Origin: Nitrospirota bacterium
GTDB lineage: Bacteria; Nitrospirota; Thermodesulfovibrionia; Thermodesulfovibrionales; JdFR-85
Assembly (NCBI GenBank): GCA_015492645.1
Contig: WGER01000001.1
Location: 15,926-79,925 of the forward strand
Reading direction: 5' to 3'
DNA length: 64,000 nt
Position 1 is the stretch's first letter; the number at the start of each line of letters is the position of its first letter. The position numbers and the translations under genes were made by a program. A model generated the notes under the pieces. It searched no databases. It saw only the letters and a program-made list of their open reading frames with translations, and had not been told where the DNA came from. Below are positions 32,999-62,368 of the stretch, piece after piece.

Positions 32999-33005
32999 CA
33001 TTTTT

Positions 33006-35986: not shown

Positions 35987-36285
35987 GGTATCTCCTCGGG
36001 TCTCCTTAGATGGGGAGGTACAGAGACTATAGAGCCTGATGGAAAGTGCTCCAGACAGCCTGGACAGTCTTGGAAGGCACTGAAAAGATCTGTCTGTGAT
36101 GGGTGTCGTGTGTACCTCGCCTCTGTCCATATTGAAAGGTCAGTGAGCATCAGGGAGGTCACCAGATCCTTCAATCCCGTAAGACGGACGAACTCCGTTT
36201 GTCCCCTGTAATGACCCCACAACAGGAGTCCCAGCAGTATCAGGCTCTCCGTAATGAGTAATATCAGAAATCTCCTGTATTTCAT
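35983..36285 (-). CDS. hypothetical small membrane-anchored protein
   Basis: 100 aa with an N-terminal TM. Translationally coupled (ATGA) to the downstream permease. AGAGGAAA RBS. Confidence 0.45.
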   Translation of the reverse strand: MKYRRFLILLITESLILLGLLLWGHYRGQTEFVRLTGLKDLVTSLMLTDLSIWTEARYTRHPSQTDLFSAFQDCPGCLEHFPSGSIVSVPPHLRRPEEIP

Positions 36286-39854: not shown

Positions 39855-40919
39855 TTACTGTTCCAGGTCTATTGCCTTCTTCGGGAAGCCCTTTCTGTTC
39901 CAGTCAATGTCGATTCCGCAGAGGAATGGTCTTCCTCCGTCTTTTTCCTCTGGAATCACCACACCAAGGGCACCGTGGCACTTCTTACAGGCAGAGTAGA
40001 CCTTCACGACCCTCTTTGTCTTGGTGTCAATCACCACGATACCGCTGTCGTCCTGCTCAGGGACCTGTCTCACGGCAGCGAGGGCGAACCTTCCGTCAGG
40101 GGTGAAGTCTACATCATGGGGGTTACCACCTGTGATGATAAAGTCCTTCACCTTGCCAGTCTTGGCATCAACGACGACAACACCACCAGGGGCACCACCT
40201 GCCTCGGCATAGCCCACGCCATAGGGCTTGCCACCTTTCAGTTCATTACCCTCGGACTGCCATATTTCTGTCCCCTGGGGATTGAGTCTTGCACGGTGAA
40301 TGAAGTTACCGACACCCTCAATCTTACCAATAACCTTTTTGGTTTTTACATCCACAATGCTTATAAACCCACCGGGCATGTCACTGATATAGGCCTTTTT
40401 GCCATCCTTTGAGAAGGTGATGCCACATATGGACTTGCTGACAGGGAAACTGTCCAGGAGTTTGTGGGTCTTCGGGTCATAGACATAGACATGGCCATCA
40501 GCCATATCAGAGACCCATACAGTACCATCAGGGGCGATATTGGACCCACAGTGTTTTTTACCCAACTTGATCCAGTCGGTCTGTTTGCCCGTCTCCAGGT
40601 CGATCTCCTTTGCATAGCCATCCAGGCTGAATACATAAAGGGTCTTACCGTCCTTTGAGAGTGTGAGGGCGTCTGAATCCTTGCCGTGGGGTATCCTTGC
40701 AACCTTTCCTGTTACAAGGTCAACAAGGGCAACGTGACCGCCGTGAGTCTGGATGTAGGCAACGCCTTTTGTGAACTTAACACCTGCCCTTTCAACACCG
40801 GCTGCCGGACTCTGAGGCACTTCATAGCACTCACCCTTGCCGATTGCAGCATAAACGGAGGGAATAACAAGAACCATAATTAACATTGATAGACCAAGTA
40901 CCATCAATACCTTCTTCAT
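39855..40919 (-). CDS. secreted YVTN-type beta-propeller protein with C-terminal CxxCH motif
   Basis: Signal peptide. Repeated PDG/KDG..YV.D blades. SACKKCHG near the C-terminus. GGGAGGAAG RBS. Confidence 0.75.
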   Translation of the reverse strand: MKKVLMVLGLSMLIMVLVIPSVYAAIGKGECYEVPQSPAAGVERAGVKFTKGVAYIQTHGGHVALVDLVTGKVARIPHGKDSDALTLSKDGKTLYVFSLDGYAKEIDLETGKQTDWIKLGKKHCGSNIAPDGTVWVSDMADGHVYVYDPKTHKLLDSFPVSKSICGITFSKDGKKAYISDMPGGFISIVDVKTKKVIGKIEGVGNFIHRARLNPQGTEIWQSEGNELKGGKPYGVGYAEAGGAPGGVVVVDAKTGKVKDFIITGGNPHDVDFTPDGRFALAAVRQVPEQDDSGIVVIDTKTKRVVKVYSACKKCHGALGVVIPEEKDGGRPFLCGIDIDWNRKGFPKKAIDLEQ

Positions 40920-41132: not shown

Positions 41133-42185
41133 TTAGATATCCAAGTCCTTCATCGGCTTTATAAACAGGAAATAGACCATCGTCCAGTTACCGAGGACAA
41201 TAAAAATTGTGGCCACTATGCTTGAGATAGCCAAGGTTGACACGCCTGTCAACCCGTGTCCAACGTTTCAACCTCCGCCCACAGTGGCTCCGAATCCCAT
41301 TATGAGACCACCCACAAAGACCCTCAGTAGTTCCTCTGCACCAGGGGCCTTCAGTTTGAACTCCTTCAGTCCTATTGCACTTAGGGCCGCCCCGAGCGGG
41401 GTGCCGAGCACGAGCATGGCGCTCCAGGTAGGCTCCTTTCCCTTAAGAATAAAATTAAAGAGTTCTCTCGTTGGCCCGGTGTAGGAGACACCCCTTGCGC
41501 CACCACCCCATTTCTCTGAGGCGAACCAAGCGAGTACTATCACAACACCGATCAGTAAGCCGGCCACAGGCCACGGGTAACCCTTCTGTGGTTTCTGGTA
41601 TTTGCCCTTCAGCAGGATCGGGATCACTATCACAACAATGGCTGCAATAACTATCCATTTATTCACACCTATGATATTGTAAAGGGTAGGAACCTGTGTT
41701 TCGAGAGTGGTTTCTTCGAGCTGGGCATCGGTCATCAACTTCAGTCCCTGCTCAGTCTGCCAGATGTGTATGCTGGTCAGAAAGTTGTAAACCGGCTTGA
41801 GTATTCCATCCCTTGTTGTGAATATCCCTATCATGAAGCCCAGGACTGCAACCCAGGCAGCAAACAACCCCTCACCCACACGGTACCAGATACCGCTTCC
41901 ACAGCCACCTGCCAGCACTATCCCGAGACCGAAGATATAGCCCCCGATTATATTTGCCAGGGGAAAGAATGCCTGTCTCCTGAGTTCTTCGATCACTCCA
42001 ACATCTTCCAGGAGGTTCGCACCAATAATGGATACCACCAATGCAACCAGATAGGCCTTGAAGAGAGTAAAGTCATTGATGAAGATCAAGTCTCTGAAGG
42101 CAGTATTCATGCAGTAACGACCTCTCTGCAGGACCCACCCCGTGATTATACCCACCAGAAGGCCTGTGATGACAAGCGCTACCAT
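41133..42185 (-). CDS. YeeE/YedE-family sulfur (thiosulfate/selenium?) transporter, with in-frame TGA (41268-41270) read as selenocysteine
   Basis: The ORF track stops at GFGATVGGG-TGA. Read-through gives U-NVGHGLTGVSTLAISSIVATIFIVLG..., aligning residue for residue with the paralogue 60663-61892 (GFGAVVAKG-C-NIGQGMSGFSTLSAGSLVTVLFIILG). The 350-aa product matches family length. Confidence 0.8.
41234..41255 (-). promoter_or_regulatory. SECIS-like hairpin downstream of UGA 41270-41268
   Basis: The minus strand reads GGGTTGACA-GGCG-TGTCAACCT: 8 Watson-Crick pairs plus 1 GU, with a G-rich loop. It starts 12 nt after the UGA. Confidence 0.65.
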
Positions 42186-46460: not shown

Positions 46461-47512
46461 GCACGGGAAGGTTCTATCTCTTCATGCTCATAGGGATAAC
46501 CGGGATCCTTGCATATCTGTCCTTTCAGATAATAAGACCCTTTCTGACACCTATAGCATGGGCAATAGTTATGACAGTGGTCTTCTATCCCCTCTATGCA
46601 TATATTACGAGGTTCATAAGGTGGAAAGGCCTGGCTTCAGGACTAACCCTGGTGGTTGTTGCACTGATTATTATAGGACCATTCACATATCTTCTGGTAA
46701 ACCTTGCAGTGGAGATCAGGGACTTTCTCCATTATCTAAATACCAAGGGTATACCACAGATTGATGGATGGATGAAGACTGAAAGGGTAATCCTTTTGCA
46801 GGAACGCCTGAAAGAGGCATTGAACTTGAAGGAACTTGACCTGTCCTCCATGGTCTCCACTGCGGTCACCCGCTTGGGCAGGTCTGTACTGAGCAATGTC
46901 ACCACAGGGGTGGCCAATGTGGCATCTGTAGTTATAAACTTTGTATTTATGCTGTTTGCCATGTTCTTCATGCTGAAGGACGGCCCCGGATTCGTAGCAA
47001 GAATAGGTGACTACCTACCCTTTTCAGACCGACAGAAGGACAGACTCGCCACACAGATGAAGGATATGGTGATATCCACCATTTATGGAGGGGTTGTGGT
47101 CTCAGTTATACAGGGAATTCTTGGTGGCATAACCTTTCTGTTGCTCGGTCTTGGCGCACCAGTGCTTCTGGGTACTGCCACCGCAATAATGTCATTCATC
47201 CCTGCCCTCGGGGCCTTTGGAGTATGGGGCCCGGTCCTCGTCTATCTCATTGTGAAGAAACTCTACCTGAAGGCAATTATACTTTTTTTTGTAGGAACCT
47301 TTATAATAAGTATGGTGGACAATTTCCTGAAGCCCGTTATTATCAGCGGGCGTACCAGAATGCCCACGCTCCTGATATTTTTTAGTGTCCTCGGTGGATT
47401 GAGGTTCTTTGGCCTGATAGGTCTCGTCCTGGGGCCTCTTGTGATAGCAATGTTTATATCGGTTATTGAGATATTCAGAAATCTGGAAGGAGGTAGGTAT
47501 GGTAAGCCGTGA
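46457..47512 (+). CDS. AI-2E (PerM/UPF0118) family transporter
   Basis: 351 aa, ~8 TM, with ...DNFLKP.I... and GLIGLVLGP motifs. Confidence 0.8.
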   Translation: MSTGRFYLFMLIGITGILAYLSFQIIRPFLTPIAWAIVMTVVFYPLYAYITRFIRWKGLASGLTLVVVALIIIGPFTYLLVNLAVEIRDFLHYLNTKGIPQIDGWMKTERVILLQERLKEALNLKELDLSSMVSTAVTRLGRSVLSNVTTGVANVASVVINFVFMLFAMFFMLKDGPGFVARIGDYLPFSDRQKDRLATQMKDMVISTIYGGVVVSVIQGILGGITFLLLGLGAPVLLGTATAIMSFIPALGAFGVWGPVLVYLIVKKLYLKAIILFFVGTFIISMVDNFLKPVIISGRTRMPTLLIFFSVLGGLRFFGLIGLVLGPLVIAMFISVIEIFRNLEGGRYGKP

Positions 47513-48623
47513 AGAGTTGAGAGAACTGGAAGAGATCACAGCAGGTGAACACTATTATGTGAGCCTCTATCTTAATGTTGATCCAATTACAAATCCGAAG
47601 GGGGAATACATCACCCACCTGAAGAATCTCATAAAGGAGGCTGAAGAGAATACGCCCAAGGAGATATATAAGTCAATAAAGGGTGACATTGAAAGGATTG
47701 AATCTTATATAGTTACCAATAAGAGGGAGTTCAAAAGGGCGCTGGTGATATTTTCTTCTGGAATGACCGGCCTCTGGAGGATCTATCATCTGTCAGTGCC
47801 GGTAAAGAATCAACTCGTAATCGACATGACCCCCTGCATTGAACCACTGCTGGACCTGATAGATAATTACCCGAGATATCTTGTGCTTATTATAGACAAG
47901 GAACATGGGAGGGTTTTTATAGTACAGCAGTCAGAGATCATGGAGTATGCCATGGTACACACCCCTGATGTGCCGGGCAAACACAAAAAAGGGGGATGGT
48001 TTGCACTTGCAGAAAAAAACTATCAGCGACATATAGACTACCATGTAGGAATACATTTAAAGGAGGTTGAAAAGACCCTTGAGGACCTTCTACATAATGA
48101 GAGGATCGATATCATCTTTGTTGGGGGGCACGAAGAGGCGAGGACAAGATTTCTCCAGATATTGCCCCAGCATATCAGGGAGAAGGTGAAGGGGGAATTC
48201 AATGCGGAGATCCTTATAAGACCGGATGACGTCCTTCAGAAGGTCAGTCCATTAATACAGGAATATGAGAGGCAGAAGGAGAGGGGGTTGCTGGAGAGGC
48301 TCATAACCAAGGCACTGAAAGGTGATGCTGCAGTGCTTGGAGTGGATGATACAATCACAGCCCTCTGGGAGGGGAAGGTGCATATACTTGTTATTGATAG
48401 GGACCTTGCCATGAGTGGATTCAGATGTAAGGGATGCGGGTTTCTTACTGTCAACCATATGGATATCTGTCCTTACTGTGCTAATAATATGGAAGAGGTA
48501 GAGCATATAGGTGATTACATGTCTCAGAAGGCCCTTGAACAGGGTGCTACAGTTGAGGTTATTGCCTATGAAAAGGATCTGCTGAGAGAAAGGGGTGGTG
48601 TTGGGGCGATACTCCGGTACTGA
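47499..48623 (+). CDS. bacterial eRF1-like (baeRF/VLRF1-type) protein with C-terminal zinc ribbon
   Basis: C-terminal ...VLGVDDT..AL..G.V..L........CxxC...CPYC....E...........GA.VE.I.......GGVGAILRY. Start at ATG 47499 behind GGAGG. Confidence 0.6.
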   Translation: MVSREELRELEEITAGEHYYVSLYLNVDPITNPKGEYITHLKNLIKEAEENTPKEIYKSIKGDIERIESYIVTNKREFKRALVIFSSGMTGLWRIYHLSVPVKNQLVIDMTPCIEPLLDLIDNYPRYLVLIIDKEHGRVFIVQQSEIMEYAMVHTPDVPGKHKKGGWFALAEKNYQRHIDYHVGIHLKEVEKTLEDLLHNERIDIIFVGGHEEARTRFLQILPQHIREKVKGEFNAEILIRPDDVLQKVSPLIQEYERQKERGLLERLITKALKGDAAVLGVDDTITALWEGKVHILVIDRDLAMSGFRCKGCGFLTVNHMDICPYCANNMEEVEHIGDYMSQKALEQGATVEVIAYEKDLLRERGGVGAILRY

Positions 48624-48697: not shown

Positions 48698-49057
48698 ATG
48701 AAAATCACATCATTAATGCTGTCCGTTTTAGGGGTTCTGCTCGTTGCAGGACTGGTCTTTGCGGGAGGTGATATACAGAGGGGCAAGGCCCTCTTTGATG
48801 ACCCCTCCCTCGGTACAAATGGTAAGAGTTGTTCCAGTTGTCATCCAGAAGGGAGAGGGATTAATGGACAGAAAGAGAGTTTCACAATTATGGGTAAAAA
48901 GCAGGCAACAATTGAAGATGCAATTAACTTCTGCATCCAGAATGCCCTGAAGGGTCAGGCACTCTCAAAGGACTCACCAAAGATGAAGGATCTGGCAGCC
49001 TATCTAAAGACACTGAAGGGAGAAAAGAGAAAGAGGAAGAGAATAAAAGGTTGTTAA
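48698..49057 (+). CDS. periplasmic monoheme c-type cytochrome
   Basis: Signal peptide, a single CSSCH and a Lys/Arg-rich tail. AAGGAGG RBS. Confidence 0.75.
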   Translation: MKITSLMLSVLGVLLVAGLVFAGGDIQRGKALFDDPSLGTNGKSCSSCHPEGRGINGQKESFTIMGKKQATIEDAINFCIQNALKGQALSKDSPKMKDLAAYLKTLKGEKRKRKRIKGC

Positions 49058-50786: not shown

Positions 50787-51185
50787 ATGGCGGCAAAGAA
50801 GATGGCGATTGTGGCCAGCAAGGCCACCCTTGACATGGCTTATGCCCCACTTGTAATTGGAGCAACTGCTGCCACACTTGATGCAGATGTGAGGATATTC
50901 TTTGCCTTTGGTGGTCTTAATATCCTCCACAGGGAGAAGAACAGGAATCTGCCACCTCCACAGGGAATGGAGGAACTCCCTCAACTGGCTAACAATGTCG
51001 GTTGGGCAGGCATACCAGAGATGCTCCAGATGTGTAAGGATGCCGGCGTTAAACTGATCGCCTGTTCCGCAACAATGAAGATGCTTGGTTACAAGGAAGA
51101 AGACCTGATCGAGGGTGTCGAGGTAGCCGATGCCGACAGATTTGTAGAGTTCGCACTCGAGGCAGACTCTACCCTATTTATTTAG
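50787..51185 (+). CDS. DsrE/DsrF/DsrH-like family protein (cytoplasmic)
   Basis: 132 aa. MAIVASKATLD... and ...KLIACSATM... conserved-Cys pattern. Confidence 0.7.
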   Translation: MAAKKMAIVASKATLDMAYAPLVIGATAATLDADVRIFFAFGGLNILHREKNRNLPPPQGMEELPQLANNVGWAGIPEMLQMCKDAGVKLIACSATMKMLGYKEEDLIEGVEVADADRFVEFALEADSTLFI

Positions 51186-52484: not shown

Positions 52485-52560
52485 GGGCCGCTAGCTCAGT
52501 CGGCAGAGCACCGCCCTTTTAAGGCGGGTGTGCGGGGTTCGAATCCCCGGCGGCTCACCA
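52485..52560 (+). tRNA. tRNA-Lys (anticodon UUU)
   Basis: Cloverleaf read by eye: acceptor GGGCCGC/GCGGCTC, anticodon arm CCGCC-CTTTTAA-GGCGG, T-loop GGTTCGAATCC, encoded CCA. Confidence 0.9.
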
Positions 52561-52570
52561 GAAGGGAAGA

Positions 52571-52629
52571 CAGAGTCAGAAGTCGGATCTCTGAATATCT
52601 GATTTCTGACTTCCGATTTCTGACTTCTG
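52571..52629 (+). other. long imperfect hairpin in the tRNA-Lys/tRNA-Glu spacer, containing a 13-nt direct repeat (GATTTCTGACTTC x2)
   Basis: CAGAGTCAGAAGTCGG (52571-52586) pairs with CCGATTTCTGACTTCTG (52613-52629) over ~16 bp with one bulge. Followed by TTTTG. Confidence 0.5.
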
Positions 52630-52635
52630 TTTTGC

Positions 52636-52713
52636 GTCCCCATCGTCTAGCCAGGCCTAGGACACCGCCCTTTCAAGGCGGTAACACGGGTTCGAATCCC
52701 GTTGGGGACGCCA
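52636..52713 (+). tRNA. tRNA-Glu (anticodon UUC)
   Basis: GTCCCCATCGTCTAG...CCGCC-CTTTCAA-GGCGG...GGTTCGAATCC...GGGGACGCCA. Close to the canonical bacterial tRNA-Glu. Confidence 0.9.
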
Positions 52714-52752: not shown

Positions 52753-52768
52753 TGTACAAAAATGTACA
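52753..52768. promoter_or_regulatory. TGTACA-N4-TGTACA repeat, candidate enhancer (UAS) for the sigma-54 activator
   Basis: Two self-palindromic TGTACA hexamers one helical turn apart, ~45-55 nt upstream of the -24 element. Confidence 0.3.
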
Positions 52769-52808: not shown

Positions 52809-52824
52809 TGGCACATCTTTTGCT
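52809..52824 (+). promoter_or_regulatory. sigma-54 (-24/-12) promoter TGGCAC-N5-TTGCT
   Basis: Exact match to the TGGCAC-N5-TTGCW consensus. A TATAAT box (52826-52831) overlaps just downstream. The first ATG of the following gene is at 52838. Confidence 0.7.
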
Positions 52825-52837
52825 ATATAATGTTGTC

Positions 52838-53215
52838 ATGAGACAGATGATGATACACTGGGCTGTGTTTCTTATCCTTATTACTTCAGTTTATGCAGGT
52901 CCCTCTAAGAGACTTCTGTTTTTTTATGATGAAAGTTGTAAATGGTGTGAATATATGCAGAAGGTCCTGGAGGATAGGGATGTGAAGAGAATGTTGCATG
53001 AAATAGAGGTTATAAAGATAGATACGCAGAATAACAGAAAAATCGGTCCATGGGGCAAAACCGCAAGGGAATTAACAGACCTCTACATGATCAGGAGTGT
53101 ACCTACGCTCATTTTTGAGGAAGAGGGTGGCAAGGAACTGCTCAGGATACCAGGCGCTATAGAAAAGAAGGACTTGGTTGATTTGCTCTGTGAGTATATC
53201 CTTAGTAAGTGTTAG
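52838..53215 (+). CDS. exported thioredoxin-fold protein (CxxC)
   Basis: Signal peptide and CKWC motif in a thioredoxin-like context (...FFYDESCKWCEYM...SVPTLIF). Start moved from TTG 52820, which lies inside the promoter, to ATG 52838. Confidence 0.7.
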   Translation: MRQMMIHWAVFLILITSVYAGPSKRLLFFYDESCKWCEYMQKVLEDRDVKRMLHEIEVIKIDTQNNRKIGPWGKTARELTDLYMIRSVPTLIFEEEGGKELLRIPGAIEKKDLVDLLCEYILSKC

Positions 53216-53280
53216 TCCCCCTCAAAGGCCGGATTCTGGCAGAGGTGGGTAGTATAAATTAATCTTTCAAGGAGGTCACA

Positions 53281-53760
53281 ATGAGGAGTTTGGCAACTCT
53301 GATGTTAGGGATTTCTCTTGTCGTTGGTTCTCTTACGGTGGCCAATGCAGATGAAAAGGTGAGAAAAGCAGTATATCACTGTGACTTCGGTGATGCAAAG
53401 AGGTTTGATGCAATGTTGAGAAATATTTATAATTTGGTTAACTACTACACCACAAATGGCATCTTCTATGATGTCAGGATGGTGGCAAACTCCGCCTGTG
53501 TCCAGTTTTTACTCAAGGACAAAGCGGGAACCAAGTTTGCCAAGAAGCAGATCCCTCCAAAACTGGCAAAGGCCATAAATGACAGAATGAAGACACTGGT
53601 GGATGCCTATGGTGTGAAGTTTGAACAGTGCAGTATAACCCTCCAGAGATTAAACATTGACAAGAAAAAATTGGAGCACTTTGTGGCTACTGTACCCTCT
53701 GCACAGGTAAGAGTTGTGGAATTACAGGATGAGGGATTCGCATATATAAAGGTTAAATGA
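53281..53760 (+). CDS. periplasmic DsrE-family (COG1416-like) protein
   Basis: Signal peptide, ...KAVYHCDFGD... and ...MVANSACVQFL pattern. AAGGAGG RBS. Confidence 0.55.
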   Translation: MRSLATLMLGISLVVGSLTVANADEKVRKAVYHCDFGDAKRFDAMLRNIYNLVNYYTTNGIFYDVRMVANSACVQFLLKDKAGTKFAKKQIPPKLAKAINDRMKTLVDAYGVKFEQCSITLQRLNIDKKKLEHFVATVPSAQVRVVELQDEGFAYIKVK

Positions 53761-54239
53761 AAGGGAGAGTTCGTCATATGGAGAGAAGAGAATTCTTGAA
53801 ACTCTGTCTTGCGGTGTGGGGTGCTACATTATTATGTGAACCATTTGTGGAAACAGAGGCTGCAGAGGATGATGAGGCAAGGTTGAAGAGGGTCTTAAAG
53901 GAGAAATTTGGCGGTAGAGAGATTAGACCCTCCTCCAAGATTAATCTGAGTGTGCCGATAATAGCCGAAAATGGTGCTGTGGTCCCAGTAAAAGTGAGTG
54001 CAGATATGCCTATGAAGGTCTCTTTATATGTAAAAAAGATCTATATATTTGTGGATGGGAATATGAACCCTTATGTGGGCAGTGTAGAACTTTCCCCAAA
54101 GAATGGTAGGGCAGAGGTTGCAATGAGAATCAAGATGAGGAAGACTTCTCCTGTCAGGGCAGTAATAGAAATGAGCGACGGTTCTCTGTATACCACAATG
54201 AAGGAAGTGAAGGTTACCAGGGGGGGTTGTGGCGGATGA
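53757..54239 (+). CDS. soxY: sulfur-compound carrier protein SoxY
   Basis: Tat signal (RREFLK) and the diagnostic C-terminal GGCGG swinging-arm motif. Alternative start at ATG 53778. Confidence 0.9.
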   Translation: MKGRVRHMERREFLKLCLAVWGATLLCEPFVETEAAEDDEARLKRVLKEKFGGREIRPSSKINLSVPIIAENGAVVPVKVSADMPMKVSLYVKKIYIFVDGNMNPYVGSVELSPKNGRAEVAMRIKMRKTSPVRAVIEMSDGSLYTTMKEVKVTRGGCGG

Positions 54240-54256
54240 ACTCAGGAGGACAGGGG

Positions 54257-54589
54257 ATGAGTGAAATAGGTAAGATCAGATTCAGGATACCGAAAAATAT
54301 AAAAAGGGGGCAGATAATACCAGTAAAGGTCCTTATTAGACATCCCATGGAGACGGGGTTCAGAAAAGATAAAGCCACGGGTGAGACAATCCCAGCATAC
54401 TATATTAACCGGGTAGAGATATATTACTCAGGAGAGTTGATAACCCTCTTTGACTGGACAAGGGCTATAAGTGCAAATCCATTGATTACCTTTTATCTAA
54501 GGGCGGATAAGAAGGCACCACTCCGAATAGTATGGAAAGACAACAAAGGTGGCGTTTACGAAAAGTCAGTGATGATAAATCCTCAATAG
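54257..54589 (+). CDS. soxZ: SoxZ
   Basis: ~110 aa with ...IRFRIP....G.I..VK.LI.HPMETG... typical of SoxZ. AGGAGG RBS before ATG 54257. Confidence 0.85.
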   Translation: MSEIGKIRFRIPKNIKRGQIIPVKVLIRHPMETGFRKDKATGETIPAYYINRVEIYYSGELITLFDWTRAISANPLITFYLRADKKAPLRIVWKDNKGGVYEKSVMINPQ

Positions 54590-54598
54590 GGGAAGATC

Positions 54599-56260
54599 AT
54601 GATCAGCAGAAGGGAGTTTCTATACTGTCTGGCGATTGCAATGGGTGGATCTGCAATAAATCTAAAGGGATTGTCTGCAGAAGAACCCACTTTTGAGTCT
54701 GTTGTTAGTTTTCGGTCAATCGGAAATGTGACCATACTGCATACCACTGATACCCATGCCCAGCTCCTTCCAACCTATTACAGGGAGCCTGATACCAACA
54801 TCGGTATAGGTGCAATGAAGGGCACCCCACCGCATTTAACAGGTATGGAGTTCCTAAAGTACTATGGAATAAGGCACGGTAGCCCATTGGCTTATGCCTT
54901 TACTTATTTAGATTTTCAGACACTTGCCAGAGAATATGGCAAGATGGGGGGATTTTCCCATCTTGCCACTCTTATTAAACAGGTGAGACAGGAAAGAGAG
55001 GGCAAGGTTGTGTATGTAGATACAGGAGACACCCTTCAAGGCTCTGCATTGAGCCTCTGGTCCAGAGGAGAGGATATGGTAGAGGTACTGAATCTTCTTA
55101 AATGTGATGCTATGACCGGTCACTGGGAATTCACATATGGCCAGCAGAGGCTTATGGAACTGATAAAGAAGATGAAATTTCCATTTATTGCACATAATGT
55201 GCATGATGCAATCTGGGAAGATCCTGTGTTTGAGCCTTATGTGATAAAGTCATTAAAGGATGTCTCTGTTGCCCTTATAGGTCAGGCATTCCCATATACC
55301 CCCATAGCCAATCCGAAAAGGTTTATTCCTGACTGGTCCTTTGGGATCAAAGAGGAAAACCTTCAAAGAGTTGTAGATGAGGTGAGGGCAAAGAAGGTAG
55401 ATTTAGTAATCCTATTATCCCACAGTGGCTTTGATGTGGACAGAAAAATAGCATCAAGGGTAAAGGGAATAGACGTGATCTTAGGTGGGCATACCCATGA
55501 TGCTATACCGAGACCCTTTGTAGTGGGGAAAACCCTTGTCATTGGATCAGGCTGTTATGGAAAGTTTTTAGCAAGATTGGATCTGAAGGTGAGGTCAAAA
55601 AGGATTGAAGACTTTTCCTTTAAACTCATACCTGTCTTCTCCAGAGTTATCAAACCTGACCATGAAATGGAAACACTTATAAAGAGATTAAGGACTCCAT
55701 ATCTCAAGCAGTTGAGCGAGGTGATTGGAGAGACGGAGGTCCTGCTCTTCAGAAGAGGCAATTTTGACGGTACCTTTGACGATCTTATATGTGATGCACT
55801 AATGGAATACTATGATGTGGATTTCACCTTGTCTCCAGGATTCAGATGGGGAGCAACGATTCTTCCAGGTAAAATAACCAGTGAGGATGTCTATTCTCAC
55901 ACTGCAATCACATATCCAAACACCTACAGAGGTAAGATAAAAGGTTCACAACTAAAAGAGATCCTTGAGGATATAGCCGATAACCTCTTTAATCCAGACC
56001 CCTACAGACAACAGGGTGGTGACATGGTACGTTCAAGAGGCATCCACTATATACTCTATCCTGAACAGAAGATGGGCAACAGGATAGCAGATCTCCGTGT
56101 AAGGGGAAAGCCTGTTGACCCTGACAGGGAATACACCTTTGCCGGATGGGCCTCTATGCAACTACAGGAGGGTCCCCCTGTATATGAGATTGTGTTAGAC
56201 TATATCAGGAAGAAAAAAAGAATTAATGTTGAGGTGGACCGACCGAGGGTTATAATCTGA
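54599..56260 (+). CDS. soxB: thiosulfohydrolase SoxB (5'-nucleotidase/metallophosphatase family)
   Basis: Tat signal SRREFL, metallophosphatase motifs (HTTDTHAQ, GDT.QGS, GHWEF, GGHTHD) and a C-terminal 5'-nucleotidase domain. Confidence 0.85.
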   Translation: MISRREFLYCLAIAMGGSAINLKGLSAEEPTFESVVSFRSIGNVTILHTTDTHAQLLPTYYREPDTNIGIGAMKGTPPHLTGMEFLKYYGIRHGSPLAYAFTYLDFQTLAREYGKMGGFSHLATLIKQVRQEREGKVVYVDTGDTLQGSALSLWSRGEDMVEVLNLLKCDAMTGHWEFTYGQQRLMELIKKMKFPFIAHNVHDAIWEDPVFEPYVIKSLKDVSVALIGQAFPYTPIANPKRFIPDWSFGIKEENLQRVVDEVRAKKVDLVILLSHSGFDVDRKIASRVKGIDVILGGHTHDAIPRPFVVGKTLVIGSGCYGKFLARLDLKVRSKRIEDFSFKLIPVFSRVIKPDHEMETLIKRLRTPYLKQLSEVIGETEVLLFRRGNFDGTFDDLICDALMEYYDVDFTLSPGFRWGATILPGKITSEDVYSHTAITYPNTYRGKIKGSQLKEILEDIADNLFNPDPYRQQGGDMVRSRGIHYILYPEQKMGNRIADLRVRGKPVDPDREYTFAGWASMQLQEGPPVYEIVLDYIRKKKRINVEVDRPRVII

Positions 56261-56267
56261 TCATTAA

Positions 56268-57722
56268 GTGACAAAGAGATTCTTTATAATCTCACTGATA
56301 TGGATACTCTGGACAGGTAGTGTTCAGTCAATAGAAGAGTTGAGATTTGTGCTCATACCCCTTGAGTCTCCCACTACCATGTACAAAAGGTTTCTCCCTC
56401 TTAAGAGATATCTGCAGGAGAGACTTTCATTAAGGATCACCTTGCGGGTTGCCACTGATGGAGAGGACATCCTGAAACAATTAAGAGAAGGAAAGGCTGA
56501 TCTGGCCTTCCTCTGTCCAACCCTTTACTGCAGGGCCGCGGCAGAGAGCCCTTTGCTGCCCCTCATCAAACTCAGTGTTCGTGGTGCTTCAAAATACAGG
56601 AGTGCAATTGTTGTCCGGCAAGATTCTGATATAAAGAAGACGATTGACCTGAGAGACAGAAGTTTCGTCTATGGCCGATATCAGTGTCCGGGCTCAGGGC
56701 TTCTACCCACTGTTATGTTGAAGAGGGTTGGTATTACTGAAGAGGGACTCTTTGAGGTTGTCAAGTTAGGCTCTGATAAGAGCGCAGTGGTTTCTGTACT
56801 GGCAAAGGTATTTGATGCCACAGGTGTGCCCGAGTCAGTAGCAGAGAAATATGCTGACAAAGGGCTCAGGACTGTCAGATATTCCTATTCTATCCCTCAG
56901 TATCTCATCGCTGCTCGTAAGGATTTAGGTGTTGACCTTTTGGCCAACCTCAGGGAGACCTTTCTTGAGGTAAACAGCAGTCCTTCAGGATCTCATATAT
57001 TTGAGAGTATAGGTGAGGGAGTTGATTCCTTCAGACCTGCCTCAGACAGTGAATATGACATTGTAAGGGCACTGATGAATATTCCTGTTCCAAAAGGTAC
57101 AGATCCGATTTCGGTAATAGTAGAACCGGTACTCTCTAAGGTGGAGATTTTAAGTAGAGTAGGAGAGATGATGAACTATCTGACTAAAGAGACAGGCCTC
57201 AGGTTCAGAATAATTGTTCCTGCTGATGAGAGATTATTCATCGAGCGGATGAAGGAAGGTGATGGTGTATTATTTCTGTATTCAGCCCTGTTTGAAAACG
57301 ACAGTGAGACCTCACTCACCAGATTAGCAAAGGTGTGGATATTCGGTAGAGATGCCCGTTTTTTCCTCATAAGAGGCGAGAATAAAGGGGGGGAGATAGC
57401 AGTGGCTTCTCTGATGCATAATATTTCTGGCATAAGCAAGAAGAGATTGACTCCGGTGGGCACCTATGAGAAAGTACTGCTCAGTGTGTACAATGGAAAT
57501 ATCTCCATGGGGTTAATAAATTCTGCAGTGTATGAGGCATTTATTGATGACCTCCATGTACAGAAACTATCCATTCTGAGAACTGTTCCACTGCCGACAT
57601 ATTGGACCTTGGAGGCAGGATATGGTGTTGATCAAAAGATAATTGATAAAATAAAAAAAGCATTAAATAATTATAAAGGATTCCCTGCTGTTGAATTATA
57701 CAATGAGATGGTATCTTCTTAA
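56268..57722 (+). CDS. periplasmic PhnD/SsuA-like substrate-binding protein (apparently duplicated PBP domain)
   Basis: Signal peptide. ...LRFVLIPLESP..., ...ADLAFL... and ...YRSAIVVR... (PhnD-like), with a second PBP-like half. Confidence 0.6.
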   Translation: MTKRFFIISLIWILWTGSVQSIEELRFVLIPLESPTTMYKRFLPLKRYLQERLSLRITLRVATDGEDILKQLREGKADLAFLCPTLYCRAAAESPLLPLIKLSVRGASKYRSAIVVRQDSDIKKTIDLRDRSFVYGRYQCPGSGLLPTVMLKRVGITEEGLFEVVKLGSDKSAVVSVLAKVFDATGVPESVAEKYADKGLRTVRYSYSIPQYLIAARKDLGVDLLANLRETFLEVNSSPSGSHIFESIGEGVDSFRPASDSEYDIVRALMNIPVPKGTDPISVIVEPVLSKVEILSRVGEMMNYLTKETGLRFRIIVPADERLFIERMKEGDGVLFLYSALFENDSETSLTRLAKVWIFGRDARFFLIRGENKGGEIAVASLMHNISGISKKRLTPVGTYEKVLLSVYNGNISMGLINSAVYEAFIDDLHVQKLSILRTVPLPTYWTLEAGYGVDQKIIDKIKKALNNYKGFPAVELYNEMVSS

Positions 57723-59172
57723 ATGGATATATGATCGGACCAGTTTTAAGACAAAAGGAATATTTTATGTGGTCATCCTTATAATGGTCATCTTTCTGTC
57801 GGTAAGCCTCCTGGTGCTCTCATCTGCAAAAAAGAATCTTAAGAATCAATTACAGACCTTCCATGAAGGGATCGCAGCCCGTCTCGCTATTGATGCCTCT
57901 GATGCCTTTATAAGTAAGGACTTTGGTAGTTTACTCACGAGAATTGAACAACTACGAAAGGCTTCACAGATAAAAGGGGCAACAGTTATTGACCTAAATG
58001 GTGTTGTTGTCTCTTCAGAGGATCTCCGAAAACTTGGTACAATCGATGATGAACTTTTAAGGTTGCTTGAGTCATATAAAAAAAAGCATTTTATAACAAA
58101 ATTAGATGGAAAGATTTTCATGCCTGTTGAGGTAGATGGTGATCTCTTCGGGTTTATGGAAGTAGTCTTTGATTGGGAGAAGGAACAACAGAACCTGAAT
58201 AAAGAGTTCAAGAACACGGTGAGACATCTCATCTATCTTGCCATTGTGATTACCGCACTCGGTATATGTGGTGCCTTTGTGGTTTCATCTCTGTTAACAA
58301 AACCTGTTGTAGACCTTACTAAAGAGATAGAGAATTTTGAGAGAGAACTCATTTCATCCACAAAGGGAGAGATTTCATCGCCCCTGAGAGACGAGACCAT
58401 TTACCTCAGGGAAGCATTCCATCGGATGATTCAGAGTCTTAAAAAATATCTGAGTGAATACAAAAGGATTTCAGAAGAGAGGCAGAGACTGTCCTGTCTT
58501 GCGACGGTGGGTGAGGTATCAGCGCAAATCGCTCATGAAATAAGGAATAGTATGCATGCAATAAAGGCTGCCATTGGAGGTATAGAAGAAACTGGGTATA
58601 ACGGCAATATAAAGGAGTACATAGAGATAATCAAGGAAGAGGCAGCGGATATGTCTGCCACTATGGAGGAATTCCTGAGATTCTCAAAGATGCCATCGCC
58701 AGTACTGAAGGAATGCAGGATTGAGGAGGTGATTGACCGTGTGATTGAATTACTTGAACCTGATCTGGAAGAAGCAGGGGTCAAGGTGATAAAGAAGAAA
58801 GATATACAATTACCTTTGTTGAAGGGTGATCCGGCCCTTCTAAAACAGGCCTTTATGAATTTATTTATGAACTCCATACAGGCAATGCCCACTGGTGGTA
58901 AGATAATCATAGACTTCAGGATCAACGAGCACTGGCTTGATGTCTCTTTTAAGGATACAGGTCCGGGGATCCCACAGGAGTTGAAGGATAAAATTTTTCA
59001 GCCTTTCTTTACAACTAAAACAGACGGGATTGGGTTGGGACTCACTACTGTCTACAAGATTGTAATAGCCCATTATGGTCAGATTTATCTGCTGGACTCT
59101 GAAGTGGGTGCAAACTTTCTGATAAGGCTTCCCTTAGGAGAACAGAGGCTGACCTTTATGGAGGATATCTGA
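57691..59172 (+). CDS. sensor histidine kinase (NtrB/AtoS-like: TM, HisKA, HATPase_c)
   Basis: H-box SAQIAHEIRNSM and N/G boxes (DTGPGIP, GIGLGL). The 5' end overlaps the PBP gene. Confidence 0.85.
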   Translation: MNYTMRWYLLKWIYDRTSFKTKGIFYVVILIMVIFLSVSLLVLSSAKKNLKNQLQTFHEGIAARLAIDASDAFISKDFGSLLTRIEQLRKASQIKGATVIDLNGVVVSSEDLRKLGTIDDELLRLLESYKKKHFITKLDGKIFMPVEVDGDLFGFMEVVFDWEKEQQNLNKEFKNTVRHLIYLAIVITALGICGAFVVSSLLTKPVVDLTKEIENFERELISSTKGEISSPLRDETIYLREAFHRMIQSLKKYLSEYKRISEERQRLSCLATVGEVSAQIAHEIRNSMHAIKAAIGGIEETGYNGNIKEYIEIIKEEAADMSATMEEFLRFSKMPSPVLKECRIEEVIDRVIELLEPDLEEAGVKVIKKKDIQLPLLKGDPALLKQAFMNLFMNSIQAMPTGGKIIIDFRINEHWLDVSFKDTGPGIPQELKDKIFQPFFTTKTDGIGLGLTTVYKIVIAHYGQIYLLDSEVGANFLIRLPLGEQRLTFMEDI

Positions 59173-59173
59173 A

Positions 59174-60514
59174 ATGCCGGAAGGCTGTTACAGGCTTCTT
59201 GTGGTGGATGATGAAAGGAATATAAGAAGGGCTCTTGAGAAGTTCTTCAAACAGAAAGGATTTTATGTGGAGACAGCAAGGAGTTATGAAGAGGCCGTTT
59301 CAAGACTCCAGCAGAACAACTTTGATCTGGTACTCACTGACATGCGTCTGCCCGGCAGATCAGGCTTAGAACTCCTCAAATGGATCAAACACCACTCTGC
59401 TGATGTGCCGGTTGTTGTGATTACCGCTTATGGCAGTATTGAAAACGCTGTAGAGGCGATGAAGGCTGGTGCATCTAATTATATTACAAAGCCGGTTGAT
59501 CTCACAGAGATATTTGCCATCGTTAGACATACACTGATACACAGTGGGCATATAGGTGTTGCTGAGACAGCAGAAAAACCCAATTATGGAATAATCGGGC
59601 AGAGTCGTGCAATAAAAGAAATTATGGCCATAATTGAAGCGGTGAGCACAAGCCGGTCTACTATATTGATTACCGGAGAATCAGGTACAGGCAAGGAGTT
59701 AGTTGCAAGGGCGATACATAGTGCCTCAGCAAGAAAAGGTCCTTTTGTTCCTATTAATTGTGCTGCTATACCTTCAGAGTTAATAGAGAATGAACTCTTT
59801 GGCCACGAGGCGGGTGCATACACAGGAGCAACAACCACAAAAAGGGGTAAGGTTGAGATTGCAAATGGGGGAACCCTCTTCCTTGATGAGATTGCCGAAA
59901 TGCCCATCCAGATGCAGGTGAAGTTACTGAGGTTCATTCAGGATAGAGAGTTTTATAGAGTGGGTGGAACCCTTCCCCTGAGTTCAGACTGTCGGATTAT
60001 AGCGGCCACCAATAAAGATATTGAGGAGGAGGTCACAGGAGGAAGATTCAGAGAAGACCTATACTGGAGATTGAATGTGATCCATATTCACGTCCCTCCA
60101 TTGAGGGAGCGGATGGAGGATATCCCCAAACTTGCTATGTCATTTTTGAGAAGATTTGCAGAAGAAAATCATAAACTCGTTACAGGTATTGAAGAAACAG
60201 CTATGGAAGCCTTAATGAGGTATAAATGGCCGGGAAATGTCAGGGAACTGGAGAATGTGATAGAAAGAGCGGTGGTGCTCACCAAGGGCCAAACCATTAC
60301 ACTCAGTGACCTGCCTCACAGGATAAGCAAAGTTGACAACACCTACTACACTGATCTTGCCCTGTTGTCAAGTATGAAACTCTCGGAAATTGAAAAGGCT
60401 GCTGTTATTAGAGCCCTGCAAGAGGAGAACTGGAACCAGACACGTGCAGCAAAAAGACTCGGGATAACACGAAGACAATTGAGAACAAAGATGCTCAAGT
60501 ACGGGCTTCTTTAA
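59174..60514 (+). CDS. sigma-54-dependent response regulator (NtrC family: REC-AAA+-HTH)
   Basis: REC domain, Walker A GESGTGKE, GAYTGA (GAFTGA-type) loop, ESELFGHE-like motif and a C-terminal Fis-type HTH. Confidence 0.9.
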   Translation: MPEGCYRLLVVDDERNIRRALEKFFKQKGFYVETARSYEEAVSRLQQNNFDLVLTDMRLPGRSGLELLKWIKHHSADVPVVVITAYGSIENAVEAMKAGASNYITKPVDLTEIFAIVRHTLIHSGHIGVAETAEKPNYGIIGQSRAIKEIMAIIEAVSTSRSTILITGESGTGKELVARAIHSASARKGPFVPINCAAIPSELIENELFGHEAGAYTGATTTKRGKVEIANGGTLFLDEIAEMPIQMQVKLLRFIQDREFYRVGGTLPLSSDCRIIAATNKDIEEEVTGGRFREDLYWRLNVIHIHVPPLRERMEDIPKLAMSFLRRFAEENHKLVTGIEETAMEALMRYKWPGNVRELENVIERAVVLTKGQTITLSDLPHRISKVDNTYYTDLALLSSMKLSEIEKAAVIRALQEENWNQTRAAKRLGITRRQLRTKMLKYGLL

Positions 60515-60605
60515 ATCTGTTCATTTTAGTACACCATAGGACTCATCTCAGGGGCATTTTTGTCCAGACGTCCTTGGAAGTTGTCTAAAAATCAGGATTT
60601 GACAC

Positions 60606-60621
60606 TGGCACGAAATATGAA
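60606..60621 (+). promoter_or_regulatory. possible sigma-54 promoter (TGGCAC-N5-ATGAA; weak -12)
   Basis: Perfect -24 element, but the -12 region matches only 2/4 of TTGC. Lies ~40 nt upstream of the yeeE-like ATG 60663. Confidence 0.35.
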
Positions 60622-60662: not shown

Positions 60663-61892
60663 ATGAGAAAGAAGGAGATTCTCTGGTACATTTTCTTCAC
60701 AGGCTCGTTTCTGGGGCTCCTGGTCCTGATACTCAAACTCAAATCTCTTGGGGGTATTAACACGGATATGCTTACAGAAGAGGAAGTCTCTGCATTAAAG
60801 GAGTCTGTGAGAATGTGTGTCTTACTTGGTGGGCTACTGATTGGATTGATGCTGGGAGCCGTATTACAGAGGTCCATGCTCTGTCTTGTTATAGCATGCC
60901 ATGATGTAATAACCTTTAGAGACCTGACACAGATGAGGGCATTTGCTATCGCTGTATTTGTGGCAATATTGGGGACCCAGGTGCTGTACAGGATCGGAGA
61001 GGTGAATATAGAATACAGCATTTATCTTTCCACACCTTTTACCCCTGTCAGTTATATGGTGGGAGGGTTACTCTTTGGCTTTGGTATAGTCTTGGCTGGT
61101 GGATGTGCGGGCAGAATTTTGGTTTCCGCTGCTGAAGGTAATCTCTCGGGCCTCTTGAGTCTCATGGCCTTTGTATTTTCTTCTGGAGCCACCCTCTGGG
61201 GAGTTACAGCATGGATAAGGACAGACCTGCTTGATCGTTTCGTGCTCAGGATCTCGAGTCAGTATATACCAGAATTGATGAAAATGTTTCCGTGGTGGAT
61301 GAGCATTTTTCTGATAGGAGGTCCCTTGCTCCTATTTGTACTGAGGGCACCAAGAACCTCAAACTGGTGGTCATGGAAGTGGTTATTTACAGGCATCTCT
61401 GTGGGGCTTATAATAGTGCTTGCATGGTGGATAAATGGGATCAGTCACAGATTGATGCCACAACTTGATCCATTTACCTATACAGGTGTCGATGACCAGA
61501 CATTACTTCAGTACTGGAGGCCAAAGAGCCTCACCTTTGCACTGGCAAATGCCCAAACATTCAGATATCTCTTTATCTGGACAGCGGAGCAAATGAACTT
61601 CGCCATAGCTTCTGTATTTGGTGTCCTCATGGGAGCATTCCTGAGTTCCCTAATCACCAAAACATTCAGGGTGGTGGCACCTGATCTCAGACAATTTAAG
61701 GATAGCCTCATTGGTGGTTCACTAATGGGATTTGGTGCAGTGGTGGCGAAGGGATGTAACATTGGTCAGGGTATGAGTGGCTTTTCCACCCTTTCCGCTG
61801 GAAGCCTCGTTACCGTTCTGTTTATAATATTAGGAGCCTTTGCTGGCTCTTACTACATGAACTGGAGGATCAGCAGAGAGGTGAAATTTTGA
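60663..61892 (+). CDS. YeeE/YedE-family sulfur transporter (all-Cys form, with N-terminal extension)
   Basis: LAGGCAG and AKGCNIGQG motifs. 409 aa and ~10 TM. AAGGAGG RBS. Confidence 0.85.
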   Translation: MRKKEILWYIFFTGSFLGLLVLILKLKSLGGINTDMLTEEEVSALKESVRMCVLLGGLLIGLMLGAVLQRSMLCLVIACHDVITFRDLTQMRAFAIAVFVAILGTQVLYRIGEVNIEYSIYLSTPFTPVSYMVGGLLFGFGIVLAGGCAGRILVSAAEGNLSGLLSLMAFVFSSGATLWGVTAWIRTDLLDRFVLRISSQYIPELMKMFPWWMSIFLIGGPLLLFVLRAPRTSNWWSWKWLFTGISVGLIIVLAWWINGISHRLMPQLDPFTYTGVDDQTLLQYWRPKSLTFALANAQTFRYLFIWTAEQMNFAIASVFGVLMGAFLSSLITKTFRVVAPDLRQFKDSLIGGSLMGFGAVVAKGCNIGQGMSGFSTLSAGSLVTVLFIILGAFAGSYYMNWRISREVKF

Positions 61893-62368
61893 GAGGCATT
61901 CAGGTTCTTCTGATATCCCTGCTGGCGGGATGTTCTTTGCTAATAAAACCAGATACCCAGAATTGTTCCTATGTAAGGTTTTCTGTTGATGGTGATTTTC
62001 AGGATGTGATGGAAACACTAAATATGGTTATAACAGACAGAGGGCTTGTAGTTTCACATACCTTTGATATTGCTGGTATGCTAAAAAGGACAGAGGAGGT
62101 TACAGGTATAAAAACCTCTTTCAACAATGCTGAGGTGATAGAATTTTGCAGTGCTGGACTCAGTAGCAAGATGCTATCTGAGAACCCTCATAGGATAATA
62201 TTCTGTCCTTACAGAATAGCAGTTTACACATTGTATGAGGAGCCTTCCAAGGTCTTTCTTTCATATAGACCACTGGCATGTTCAGGGTCCTCACCAATCC
62301 TCTTTCAGATTGACAGTCTTGTTGAATCTCTCATAAGAGAAACTATTAAATTTCAAGATCAATATTAG
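61889..62368 (+). CDS. DUF302-domain lipoprotein
   Basis: Lipobox LLAGCS and a ...VVSHTFDI...EFC... pattern typical of DUF302. ATGA-type overlap with yeeE. Confidence 0.6.
   Translation: MRGIQVLLISLLAGCSLLIKPDTQNCSYVRFSVDGDFQDVMETLNMVITDRGLVVSHTFDIAGMLKRTEEVTGIKTSFNNAEVIEFCSAGLSSKMLSENPHRIIFCPYRIAVYTLYEEPSKVFLSYRPLACSGSSPILFQIDSLVESLIRETIKFQDQY

Follow-up and report, generated by a model that had tools for sequence, protein, structure and literature searches.

We describe a sulfur-oxidation (Sox) gene cassette that lies in a 64-kb stretch of Nitrospirota DNA (contig WGER01000001.1, positions 15,926 to 79,925; hereafter the window), is devoid of soxX and soxA, carries its own sigma-54 regulatory system and recurs with the same reduced gene set in related genomes. 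It begins with a gene for a thioredoxin-like (trx-like) protein, followed by one for an exported protein of the DsrE fold, hereafter abbreviated as DsrEp, and by soxY, soxZ and soxB; genes for a binding protein, a sensor kinase and a sigma-54 regulator come next, and a YeeE-like membrane protein with a DUF302 partner closes the series. Judged by gene content, the form without soxX and soxA is a clean, recurrent and intact architecture. Our preferred, if tentative, interpretation is that of one self-regulated periplasmic sulfur-processing cassette, a recurrent variant lacking SoxXA in which SoxY would be loaded from polythionates and DsrEp would act as a sulfur relay; the regulatory part of this model is well supported by the arrangement of genes and control sites. 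The genes, together with the upstream boundary of the cassette, are the following.

52485-52713, plus strand: tRNA-Lys and tRNA-Glu genes (ARAGORN), upstream boundary of the cassette
52838-53215, plus strand: trx-like exported thioredoxin-fold protein (PF13098, 44.8 bits; CKWC motif, signal peptide, two C-terminal Cys)
53281-53760, plus strand: DsrEp, exported DsrE-fold protein (PF02635, 40.8 bits vs a cut-off of 22.7; Sec signal peptide)
53757-54239 (gene caller start 53778), plus strand: SoxY (TIGR04488, 152.2 bits vs 125; RREFLK motif for twin-arginine translocation, Tat)
54236/54257-54589, plus strand: SoxZ (TIGR04490, 103.4 bits vs a cut-off of 76), directly after soxY
54599-56260, plus strand: SoxB thiosulfohydrolase (TIGR04486, 809.8 bits vs a cut-off of 550; SRREFL Tat motif)
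56268-57722, plus strand: exported tandem PhnD-type binding protein (PF12974, 214 bits in three stretches), 8 bases past soxB
57691-59172, plus strand: membrane sensor histidine kinase (HisKA and HATPase_c), overlapping the binding-protein gene
59174-60514, plus strand: NtrC-type sigma-54 response regulator (PF00158, 232 bits; PF00072; PF02954; GAYTGA motif read from the sequence)
60663-61892, plus strand: YeeE/YedE-family membrane protein, SoxT/TsuA-like sulfur importer (PF04143, 207 bits), after a gap of 148 nt
61889-62368, plus strand: DUF302 protein (PF03625), conserved partner of the YeeE-like gene

The sequence-only reading of this DNA had recognized the first five products, and profile matches bear out each of these identities, with the Sox models scoring above their cut-offs. 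It had closed the module at position 56260, whereas the string of genes continues to 60514 and then, with the YeeE-like and DUF302 genes, to 62368. SoxY ends in ...VTRGGCGG and so presents the GGCGG carrier arm expected of this protein; aligned with nine relatives, it reveals nothing that sets the cassettes without soxX and soxA apart. SoxB contains the metallophosphatase motifs DTH, GDT, GHWE and GGHTHD, and more than 200 alignment columns are invariant among 29 members of its clade, including the SoxB proteins of other such cassettes. The trx-like gene has alternative start codons at 52847 and 52850, and both the CxxC motif and the C-terminal Cys pair of its product are conserved in the alignment of relatives. 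The cassette is slightly poorer in GC (40-46%) than its flanks (45-48%), a difference too small to be clear evidence of recent transfer.

No soxX, soxA, soxC or soxD gene was found in the window. The earlier statement to this effect stands for true SoxX, SoxA, SoxC and SoxD proteins, with the caveat of a 119-residue protein carrying a SoxA/TsdA domain (48698-49057), which is considered below. A scan of the window for CxxCH motifs yielded a single secreted stand-alone cytochrome, and tblastn searches of the window with the SoxX and SoxA sequences of close relatives matched only this small cytochrome, with E values of ~1e-3 to 2e-4. Pfam scans of 30 further open reading frames (ORFs), a subset of those in the window, returned mostly housekeeping functions, with PGK, RpoD, DnaG, HisRS and MacB-type permeases among the matches. 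The window thus offers neither the SoxXA of a functional thiosulfate-oxidizing Sox system, which the cassette itself also lacks, nor the components of SoxCD, given that no second cytochrome and, among the scanned ORFs, no molybdoenzyme was present.

The same reduced set was encountered in relatives. The window SoxB has counterparts of 100% identity on a 17-kb contig from the metagenome-assembled genome (MAG) GCA_027053865.1 and on an ENA contig, where gene order is also the same. Its nearest clade comprises ~63 clusters of 61-69% identity, which include Candidatus Sulfobium, Nitrospiraceae, Nitrospirota, Desulfobulbus and Desulfobacterales according to the names attached to them, on which the taxonomy of all relatives rests here; the next clade, at ~55% identity, is proteobacterial. 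Searching species-representative genomes with a SoxB alignment gave mostly proteobacterial sequences among the matches listed, and at least three close relatives.

The loci inspected in these relatives, labelled with L-numbers, present three forms of the cassette. Type A has the order trx-soxX-soxY-soxZ-soxA-soxB (L004/L175/L176, L017, L084/85, L086/87), and type C has the order trx-DsrEp-soxX-soxY-soxZ-soxA-soxB (L089, L090, L169 and L171; in L173 DsrEp lies at the far end of the cassette). Type B, trx-DsrEp-soxY-soxZ-soxB without soxX and soxA, is the form of the window and recurs in L083, L170, L172, L174 and, partially, L091 (six cases altogether), with a gap of 10-90 nt between soxZ and soxB. 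The synteny of trx-DsrEp-soxYZB that the sequence-only reading had proposed to compare in relatives is therefore a recurrent one, existing alongside two forms that contain soxX and soxA. SoxCD genes are absent from all related cassettes, and no soxXA genes were found within 10 kb of the cassette in L083, L170 and L172. The sensor set accompanies the cassette in nearly all relatives, in the form either of the binding-protein, kinase and sigma-54 regulator genes that follow soxB or of a divergent dCache kinase with a sigma-54 regulator. The YeeE-like gene is kept at the cassette end in relatives and is present in all those inspected but L170 and L171, the latter having a rhodanese instead; the DUF302 gene is found in most of the cassettes, being conserved in L084, L086, L169, L172, L173 and L174 and absent in L083 and L170. 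Since the flanking genes are different in every genome, the cassette moves as a unit.

In a neighbour-joining tree of 12 sequences constructed without support values, the SoxB proteins of type B fail to form a single group. That of L083 is 78% identical to those of L171 (type C) and L086 (type A), and 66-75% identical to those of other type B cassettes. This pattern weakly suggests that soxX and soxA have been lost more than once, a scenario with which the SoxB tree is consistent but which it does not establish. The distribution also bears on the trx-like protein, which had been put forward as a candidate alternative loader of SoxY. Its gene is the first of every cassette type, with or without soxX and soxA, and its candidacy as a specific substitute for SoxXA was consequently rejected; the protein is better regarded as a core partner similar to SoxS or SoxW.

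The regulatory part of the model rests upon the following control elements in the DNA of the window.

52753-52768, plus strand: candidate activator site TGTACAAAAATGTACA of the TGT-N10-ACA type, a perfect repeat 41 nt upstream of the -24 element; predicted binding
52809-52824, plus strand: sigma-54 (-24/-12) promoter TGGCACATCTTTTGCT, an exact consensus match (TGGCAC and TTGCT separated by ATCTT)
52826-52831, plus strand: perfect TATAAT hexamer in the interval from the -12 element to the first ATG, read from the sequence
60518-60620, plus strand: possible second, weaker sigma-54 control region, with TGTTCATTTTAGTACA at 60518-60533, TGGCAC at 60606-60611 and a poor -12 element

The exact promoter signalled by the sequence-only reading is real. 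The consensus TGGCAC-N5-TTGCW has this sole exact match on the two strands of the window, where 0.02 would be expected, and only 2 of 100 shuffled sequences contained one; because matches with one mismatch are no more numerous than by chance, the exact site alone carries weight. Of 11 related loci, 10 keep the promoter at the orthologous position. In L004, L017, L083, L084/85, L086/87, L169, L171, L172 and L090 the trx-like gene is preceded at the corresponding place by a GG-N10-GC element, while in L170 the GC of the -12 element has decayed to GT. On this comparison, sigma-54 control is a conserved arrangement in the present clade of SoxB.

The candidate activator site has a similar distribution. 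TGTACAAAAATGTACA has no other exact copy in the window, the identical 16-mer recurs in L169 and L090 with the same placement relative to the promoter, and L004, L083, L084, L086 and L170 have related repeats of the form TGnACA-N4-nGnACA upstream of theirs. A degenerate copy of the repeat, TGTTCATTTTAGTACA, is located in the 148-nt gap before the yeeE-like gene, which in relatives is preceded by good -24/-12 elements (TGGCATGTCCTTTGCA in L084 and TGGCATAAAAAATGCT in L083). The distance from the -12 element to the ATG of the first gene is 13 nt in the window and 11-15 nt overall in the window, L004, L083, L084 and L169/L090, so close as to imply a leaderless or near-leaderless mRNA for this gene. 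The TATAAT hexamer within this interval might, speculatively, serve basal expression as a weak -10 element for sigma-70; it has no good -35 element and is absent from the list of the consensus scan, which found sigma-70 promoters and terminators within the operon to be no more frequent than in the shuffled background. The rpoN gene was not found in the window.

The promoter has a cognate activator, because an NtrC-type regulator is encoded in the same string of genes. This regulator comprises a receiver, an AAA+ domain and a Fis-type helix-turn-helix, starts two bases past the kinase gene and has orthologues of 59-63% identity in related cassettes, those of the kinase showing 44-52% identity. 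The PhnD-type gene directly follows soxB in L083, L084, L086, L169, L170, L171, L173 and L175; the nearest solved proteins of its product, which is presumed to be the oxyanion sensor, are PtxB, PhnD and ArrX. As in AioXSR-type systems, a PhnD-family binding protein, a kinase and a sigma-54 regulator are thus encoded together with a sigma-54 operon. The AioXSR and ArrXSR systems indeed follow the same logic with the same protein families, ArrX itself being among the nearest relatives of the binding protein (PMC7533571), but they accompany arsenic genes, whereas here the genes are those of Sox and the binding protein is a tandem, double-domain form with a presumed oxyanion ligand.

Another precedent is provided by Acidithiobacillus caldus, in which TspS/TspR activates the sox-II genes from a sigma-54 promoter through the site TGTCCCAAATGGGACA (PMC6335251). 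The two systems are likened by their arrangement, with an NtrC-type regulator and a kinase by the sox genes, and by the form of the 16-bp TGT-N10-ACA-type site, TGTCCCAAATGGGACA there and TGTACAAAAATGTACA here; they differ in that our cassette belongs to another phylum, has an additional PhnD-type sensor, carries its regulators downstream in the operon and lacks soxXA. Sigma-54 control of sox genes is therefore unusual with respect to the paradigm of the SoxR repressor, yet it is not new. The sequence-only reading, which considered it atypical, had overlooked the cognate activator encoded in the operon.

The second gene of the cassette deserves particular attention. In a word-based search the DsrEp family comprised ~47 clusters of 57-74% identity and ~165 residues, all with signal peptides. 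Cys117, in the motif EQC[SDN]IT, is invariant in 37 sequences, and Cys34 and Cys73 co-vary, being either both Cys or Val and Gly. The AlphaFold2 model of the protein has a predicted local distance difference test (pLDDT) score of 89.8, and Foldseek comparison with this model retrieved 1L1S (MTH1491) and 2PD2 (ST0148) on top, followed by DsrEFH (2HY5), TusBCD (2D1P) and YchN (1JX7), Cys117 being aligned with the conserved Cys of MTH1491. Sequence profile and modelled fold therefore identify DsrEp as a member of the DsrE/DsrF/TusD/YchN superfamily of the MTH1491/ST0148 type. It has no match in NCBIfam and, unlike DsrEFH, is exported. (A second exported DsrE-fold gene, encoding 144 residues with a FVACGNT motif, lies between DsrEp and soxY in L083, at 8629-9063; its product is nearer to the MTH1491 archetype than DsrEp is.)

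Exported or sox-associated DsrE-family proteins have been reported before. MHY1_00068 of Methylovirgula thiovorans HY1, compared here by its description, is an exported DsrE-family protein encoded inside a sox operon (PMC9371685), and Reut_A3253 of Cupriavidus pinatubonensis is a DsrE-family gene inside a sox cluster (PMC13122954); both clusters keep SoxA or SoxXA, whereas the cassette of the window has neither. The DsrE3A and TusA proteins of Metallosphaera cuprina are similar in that DsrE3A has the DsrE superfamily fold and accepts thiosulfonate from tetrathionate on one reactive Cys (PMC4175335), but they are cytoplasmic and DsrE3A belongs to another DsrE subfamily, DsrEp being exported and nearest to MTH1491/ST0148. 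We also found homologues of 33-42% identity directly beside soxX or soxB in 7 of the 78 further loci listed from genome_contigs, mostly in Proteobacteria; L039, L045, L047, L059, L062 and L069 are such cases within complete sox clusters, Advenella and Pseudorhodoplanes being among the organisms. Other distant homologues stand alone or have a porin-like gene beside them (L146, L153, L155, L156 and L166 are among the porin-module loci).

On these grounds we propose the following mechanism. By analogy with the AioXSR and ArrXSR systems, the PhnD-type binding protein would sense a periplasmic sulfur oxyanion and signal to the kinase; the phosphorylated NtrC-type regulator is predicted to bind the TGT-N10-ACA site at 52753-52768 and would then open the sigma-54 promoter at 52809-52824. 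Transcription from this promoter would cover trx, dsrEp, soxY, soxZ and soxB as well as the three regulator genes, which follow with almost no intergenic gaps, and since the regulator genes lie within their own operon, positive feedback would ensue. In the periplasm, sulfur would be carried on the cysteine of the GGCGG arm of SoxYZ, SoxB would hydrolyze the terminal sulfonate bound to SoxY to sulfate, following established Sox chemistry, and the trx-like protein would keep the SoxY cysteine in a usable state, like SoxS or SoxW. As SoxCD is absent, the remaining sulfane would have to leave SoxY, presumably by being passed to the YeeE/SoxT-like importer (the best NCBIfam match of which is TsuA, below cut-off) for cytoplasmic metabolism. 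DsrEp, via Cys117, might function as a periplasmic sulfur relay that feeds SoxY, strips sulfane towards the importer, or does both.

How SoxY could be loaded without SoxXA in the cassette is the critical step. The most likely alternative would be a non-oxidative thiol exchange with tetrathionate or other polythionates, producing SoxY-S-S-SO3-. Such SoxXA-independent loading, for instance from tetrathionate, is plausible though unproven, given analogous reactions in the literature. Tetrathionate converts SoxYZ in vitro into S-sulfonate and S-thiosulfonate adducts, the latter acting as a pathway intermediate (PMC5336275), and DsrE3A and TusA accept thiosulfonate from the same compound (PMC4175335). 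In Erythrobacter flavus, TsdA and SoxB turn thiosulfate into sulfur via tetrathionate (PMC9426585); strain 21-3 of this species resembles our case because SoxB works without SoxXA, but SoxYZ is not invoked there, whereas it is kept here and no TsdA of normal size is encoded nearby. For the subsequent unloading, the periplasmic DsrE-like protein of a sox operon has been proposed to hand over sulfur taken from SoxYZ in the direction of import (PMC9371685), and for truncated Sox a path has been proposed that leads to SoxT by way of SoxS or a DsbA-like protein (PMC11582611). The truncated systems of Hyphomicrobium denitrificans and Allochromatium vinosum share with the cassette the periplasmic SoxYZ and SoxB, the lack of SoxCD and the genes for a periplasmic thiol-disulfide oxidoreductase and a YeeE-family membrane protein alongside (PMC11582611). 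They differ from it in possessing SoxXA, which is missing from our cassette and its 64-kb surroundings, and in having an ArsR-type SoxR repressor instead of sigma-54 with a two-component system.

Several considerations weigh against this interpretation. The search for soxXA covered the window and the neighbourhoods of the cassettes, and the genes may lie elsewhere in these MAGs. The association between loss of soxXA and presence of DsrEp is biased, because 4 of the 6 cassettes of type B were found via DsrEp or a shared contig (L091 was retrieved with a DsrEp query, while L170, L172 and L174 were chosen for having SoxB and DsrEp on one contig), leaving the window and L083 as the only unbiased cases; ~10 long contigs with SoxB remain unclassified. 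An indirect pairing of contigs across the match tables of SoxB, DsrEp and SoxA missed soxA in 3 of 3 checked cases (P0006, P0041 and P0033), and its counts were not used. At least five cassettes (L089, L090, L169, L171 and L173) contain DsrEp together with SoxXA, as do Proteobacteria. DsrEp is also found without sox genes, beside a porin of the phosphate-selective type and with its own sigma-54 two-component system (L168, L088, L092-L097). Finally, the leaderless or near-leaderless mRNA suggested for the first gene would be unusual.

The porin-associated form constitutes an observation in its own right. In L168 (10001-11896) DsrEp and an outer-membrane porin of the Porin_O_P type form a two-gene module, adjoined by a divergent dCache kinase and a sigma-54 regulator, and the relatives of this type include one genome that has a full soxXYZAB cassette 28 kb away.

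Coexistence with SoxXA has direct consequences for the role of DsrEp. The idea that it takes the place of SoxX was rejected, since cassettes with both proteins were found; as judged from gene content, DsrEp is an accessory protein that also coexists with SoxXA and not a positional replacement of SoxX. Its function consequently does not depend on the absence of SoxXA, and a role in unloading, or as a general relay, is the safer reading in view of type C and the Proteobacteria. The presence of DsrEp in every type B cassette seen hints that it may, in addition, make SoxXA dispensable. Since all six cassettes without soxXA contain it, DsrEp remains a reasonable candidate for some part linked to the lack of SoxXA, in line with the sequence-only reading.

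The most serious rival is an ordinary split Sox system, which we regard as possible but less probable than the interpretation just weighed: soxX and soxA, perhaps with soxK, would reside elsewhere in the genome, SoxXA would load SoxY oxidatively and DsrEp would only help to unload the sulfane. Separate loci are well documented, as soxBXA and soxYZ lie apart in Allochromatium vinosum and the sox-I genes of A. caldus are arranged as soxYZB...soxAX (PMC6335251). They are common also among the 78 further genome_contigs loci listed (L005-L082, mostly proteobacterial), 9 of which have no SoxA within 10 kb of soxB, several of these contigs being short. The coexistence of DsrEp with SoxXA in other cassettes, and the unloading role already proposed for a periplasmic DsrE-like protein (PMC9371685), would suit this arrangement as well. 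However, in all the inspected cassettes of the clade that contain soxX and soxA (at least nine loci), soxX is fixed before soxY and soxA between soxZ and soxB, while both genes are cleanly missing in six cassettes. Relocation in several lineages would be less parsimonious than loss, and the genes are not encountered in the 64 kb of the window, nor within 10 kb of the cassette in the three relatives mentioned above.

In the opposite direction, our interpretation of a polythionate-loaded cassette could be extended to a haem-free, non-oxidative Sox system present in several anaerobic lineages. DsrEp would load SoxY with thiosulfonate or sulfane derived from polythionates or polysulfide, SoxB would free sulfate, and the whole would operate as a periplasmic polythionate hydrolase coupled to sulfur import and switched by an oxyanion sensor, SoxXA being dispensable. 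We consider this stronger proposal unlikely at present.

Still less probable is that the oxidative step is carried out by the small cytochrome upstream of the cassette, with a haem of the His/Cys type, either as a minimal enzyme resembling SoxA that would load thiosulfate onto SoxY or as a thiosulfate dehydrogenase resembling TsdA, the tetrathionate from which would go on to react with SoxY or DsrEp.

48698-49057, plus strand: exported monohaem cytochrome of 119 residues (PF21342, 34.2 bits vs 27), 3.8 kb upstream of the cassette

The protein is exported, lies close to the cassette and scores above the Pfam cut-off for the SoxA/TsdA domain; in alignment it matches the domain of TsdA (4WQ7) that holds the first haem, its Cys79 falling where TsdA has the Cys haem ligand, and the TsdA-plus-SoxB pathway provides a precedent for such a role (PMC9426585). 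It belongs, nevertheless, to a broad family of ~490 clusters at 50% identity, mostly single-domain proteins of 100-130 residues in which CxxCH is invariant and Cys79 is at least 90% conserved, and it was not found within 10 kb of the other type B cassettes. Unrelated genes and two tRNAs separate it from the cassette, and it has no sigma-54 promoter of its own. SoxA and TsdA proteins have two domains, 250-290 residues and a Cys-ligated catalytic haem; with its 119 residues and one domain the small cytochrome is like a part of SoxA or TsdA at most and a member of neither, and it has no evident electron-transfer partner, while both TsdA and SoxXA depend on a pair of haem domains. Whether it is linked to the cassette is uncertain. 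Two neighbours of this cytochrome may be recorded here. A baeRF family 10 protein, a bacterial homologue of archaeo-eukaryotic release factors, is encoded directly upstream of it (47466-48623, plus strand). Between it and the cassette lies the gene of a DsrE-family protein without signal peptide (50787-51185, plus strand; PF13686, 115 bits), which is a candidate cytoplasmic acceptor of sulfur.

We hold it to be very improbable that a complete soxXYZAB operon is decaying here and that what is left of it has lost its function in sulfur oxidation. Two core genes are missing and the -12 element of L170 is degraded, as such a process would predict, but the remaining genes are intact and well above family cut-offs, and the promoter of the window is a perfect consensus. 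Moreover, the same reduced set is kept in six cassettes, the SoxB proteins of which are only 66-75% identical to each other and preserve every column found invariant across the clade.

The suggestion that the module handles selenium, or another non-sulfur species, on SoxY is scarcely credible. The matches of SoxY, SoxZ and SoxB are of true equivalog rank, and the cassette contains no gene specific for selenium. The YeeE-like protein matches YedE weakly (76 vs 350 bits), as the binding protein does a putative family of selenate-binding proteins (59 vs 250), but both scores fall far below cut-offs and the TsuA (thiosulfate) model scores higher. Nothing points to a role of selenium in this module, although the organism probably uses selenocysteine. 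This use is suggested by a DsbC-like gene located far from the cassette (11102-11914, plus strand), which encodes a DsbC_N domain, a signal peptide and an N-terminal CxxCH and contains an in-frame TGA at 11534-11536. The TGA sits at the expected first Cys of a CxxC motif (...IFDDPD-TGA-PFC...), and a 7-bp hairpin (CUUCACC-AGGU-GGUGAAG) begins 18 nt past it, although the z-score of its fold is not significant; the gene is probably that of a selenocysteine-containing (UxxC) thiol-disulfide isomerase that is read as two ORFs.

Elsewhere in the window, the region between 30338 and 44101 may represent another sulfur-related module for export or import, on the basis of its gene content. It encodes beta-propeller proteins with a C-terminal CxxCH (30338-31297, plus strand, and 39855-40919, minus strand), permeases of the FtsX/MacB type (31301-33001, 34838-36130 and 38266-39477, all on the minus strand) and a second YeeE-like protein with a Sulf_transp domain (41268-42185, minus strand).

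Each ingredient of the cassette is precedented: truncated Sox, two-component sigma-54 control of sox genes, DsrE-like genes within sox clusters and the use of SoxB independently of SoxXA have all been described. In the literature we searched, no account was found of soxX and soxA being cleanly lost from several lineages while DsrEp is kept.

Metagenome studies routinely take SoxB and SoxYZ as markers of thiosulfate oxidation, and an incomplete Sox system is usually blamed on poor assembly. The form without soxXA occurs in MAGs of Nitrospirota and Desulfobacterota that are otherwise tied to sulfate reduction or sulfur disproportionation. If the cassette does work without SoxXA, inferences from marker genes for these groups would need revising, and the function of the exported DsrE-like proteins scattered in sox clusters would become directly testable. 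The cassette bears on the question of how sulfur gets on and off SoxY in the absence of SoxCD, and its conserved promoter, activator site and binding-protein sensor offer a handle for reporter and ligand-binding work.

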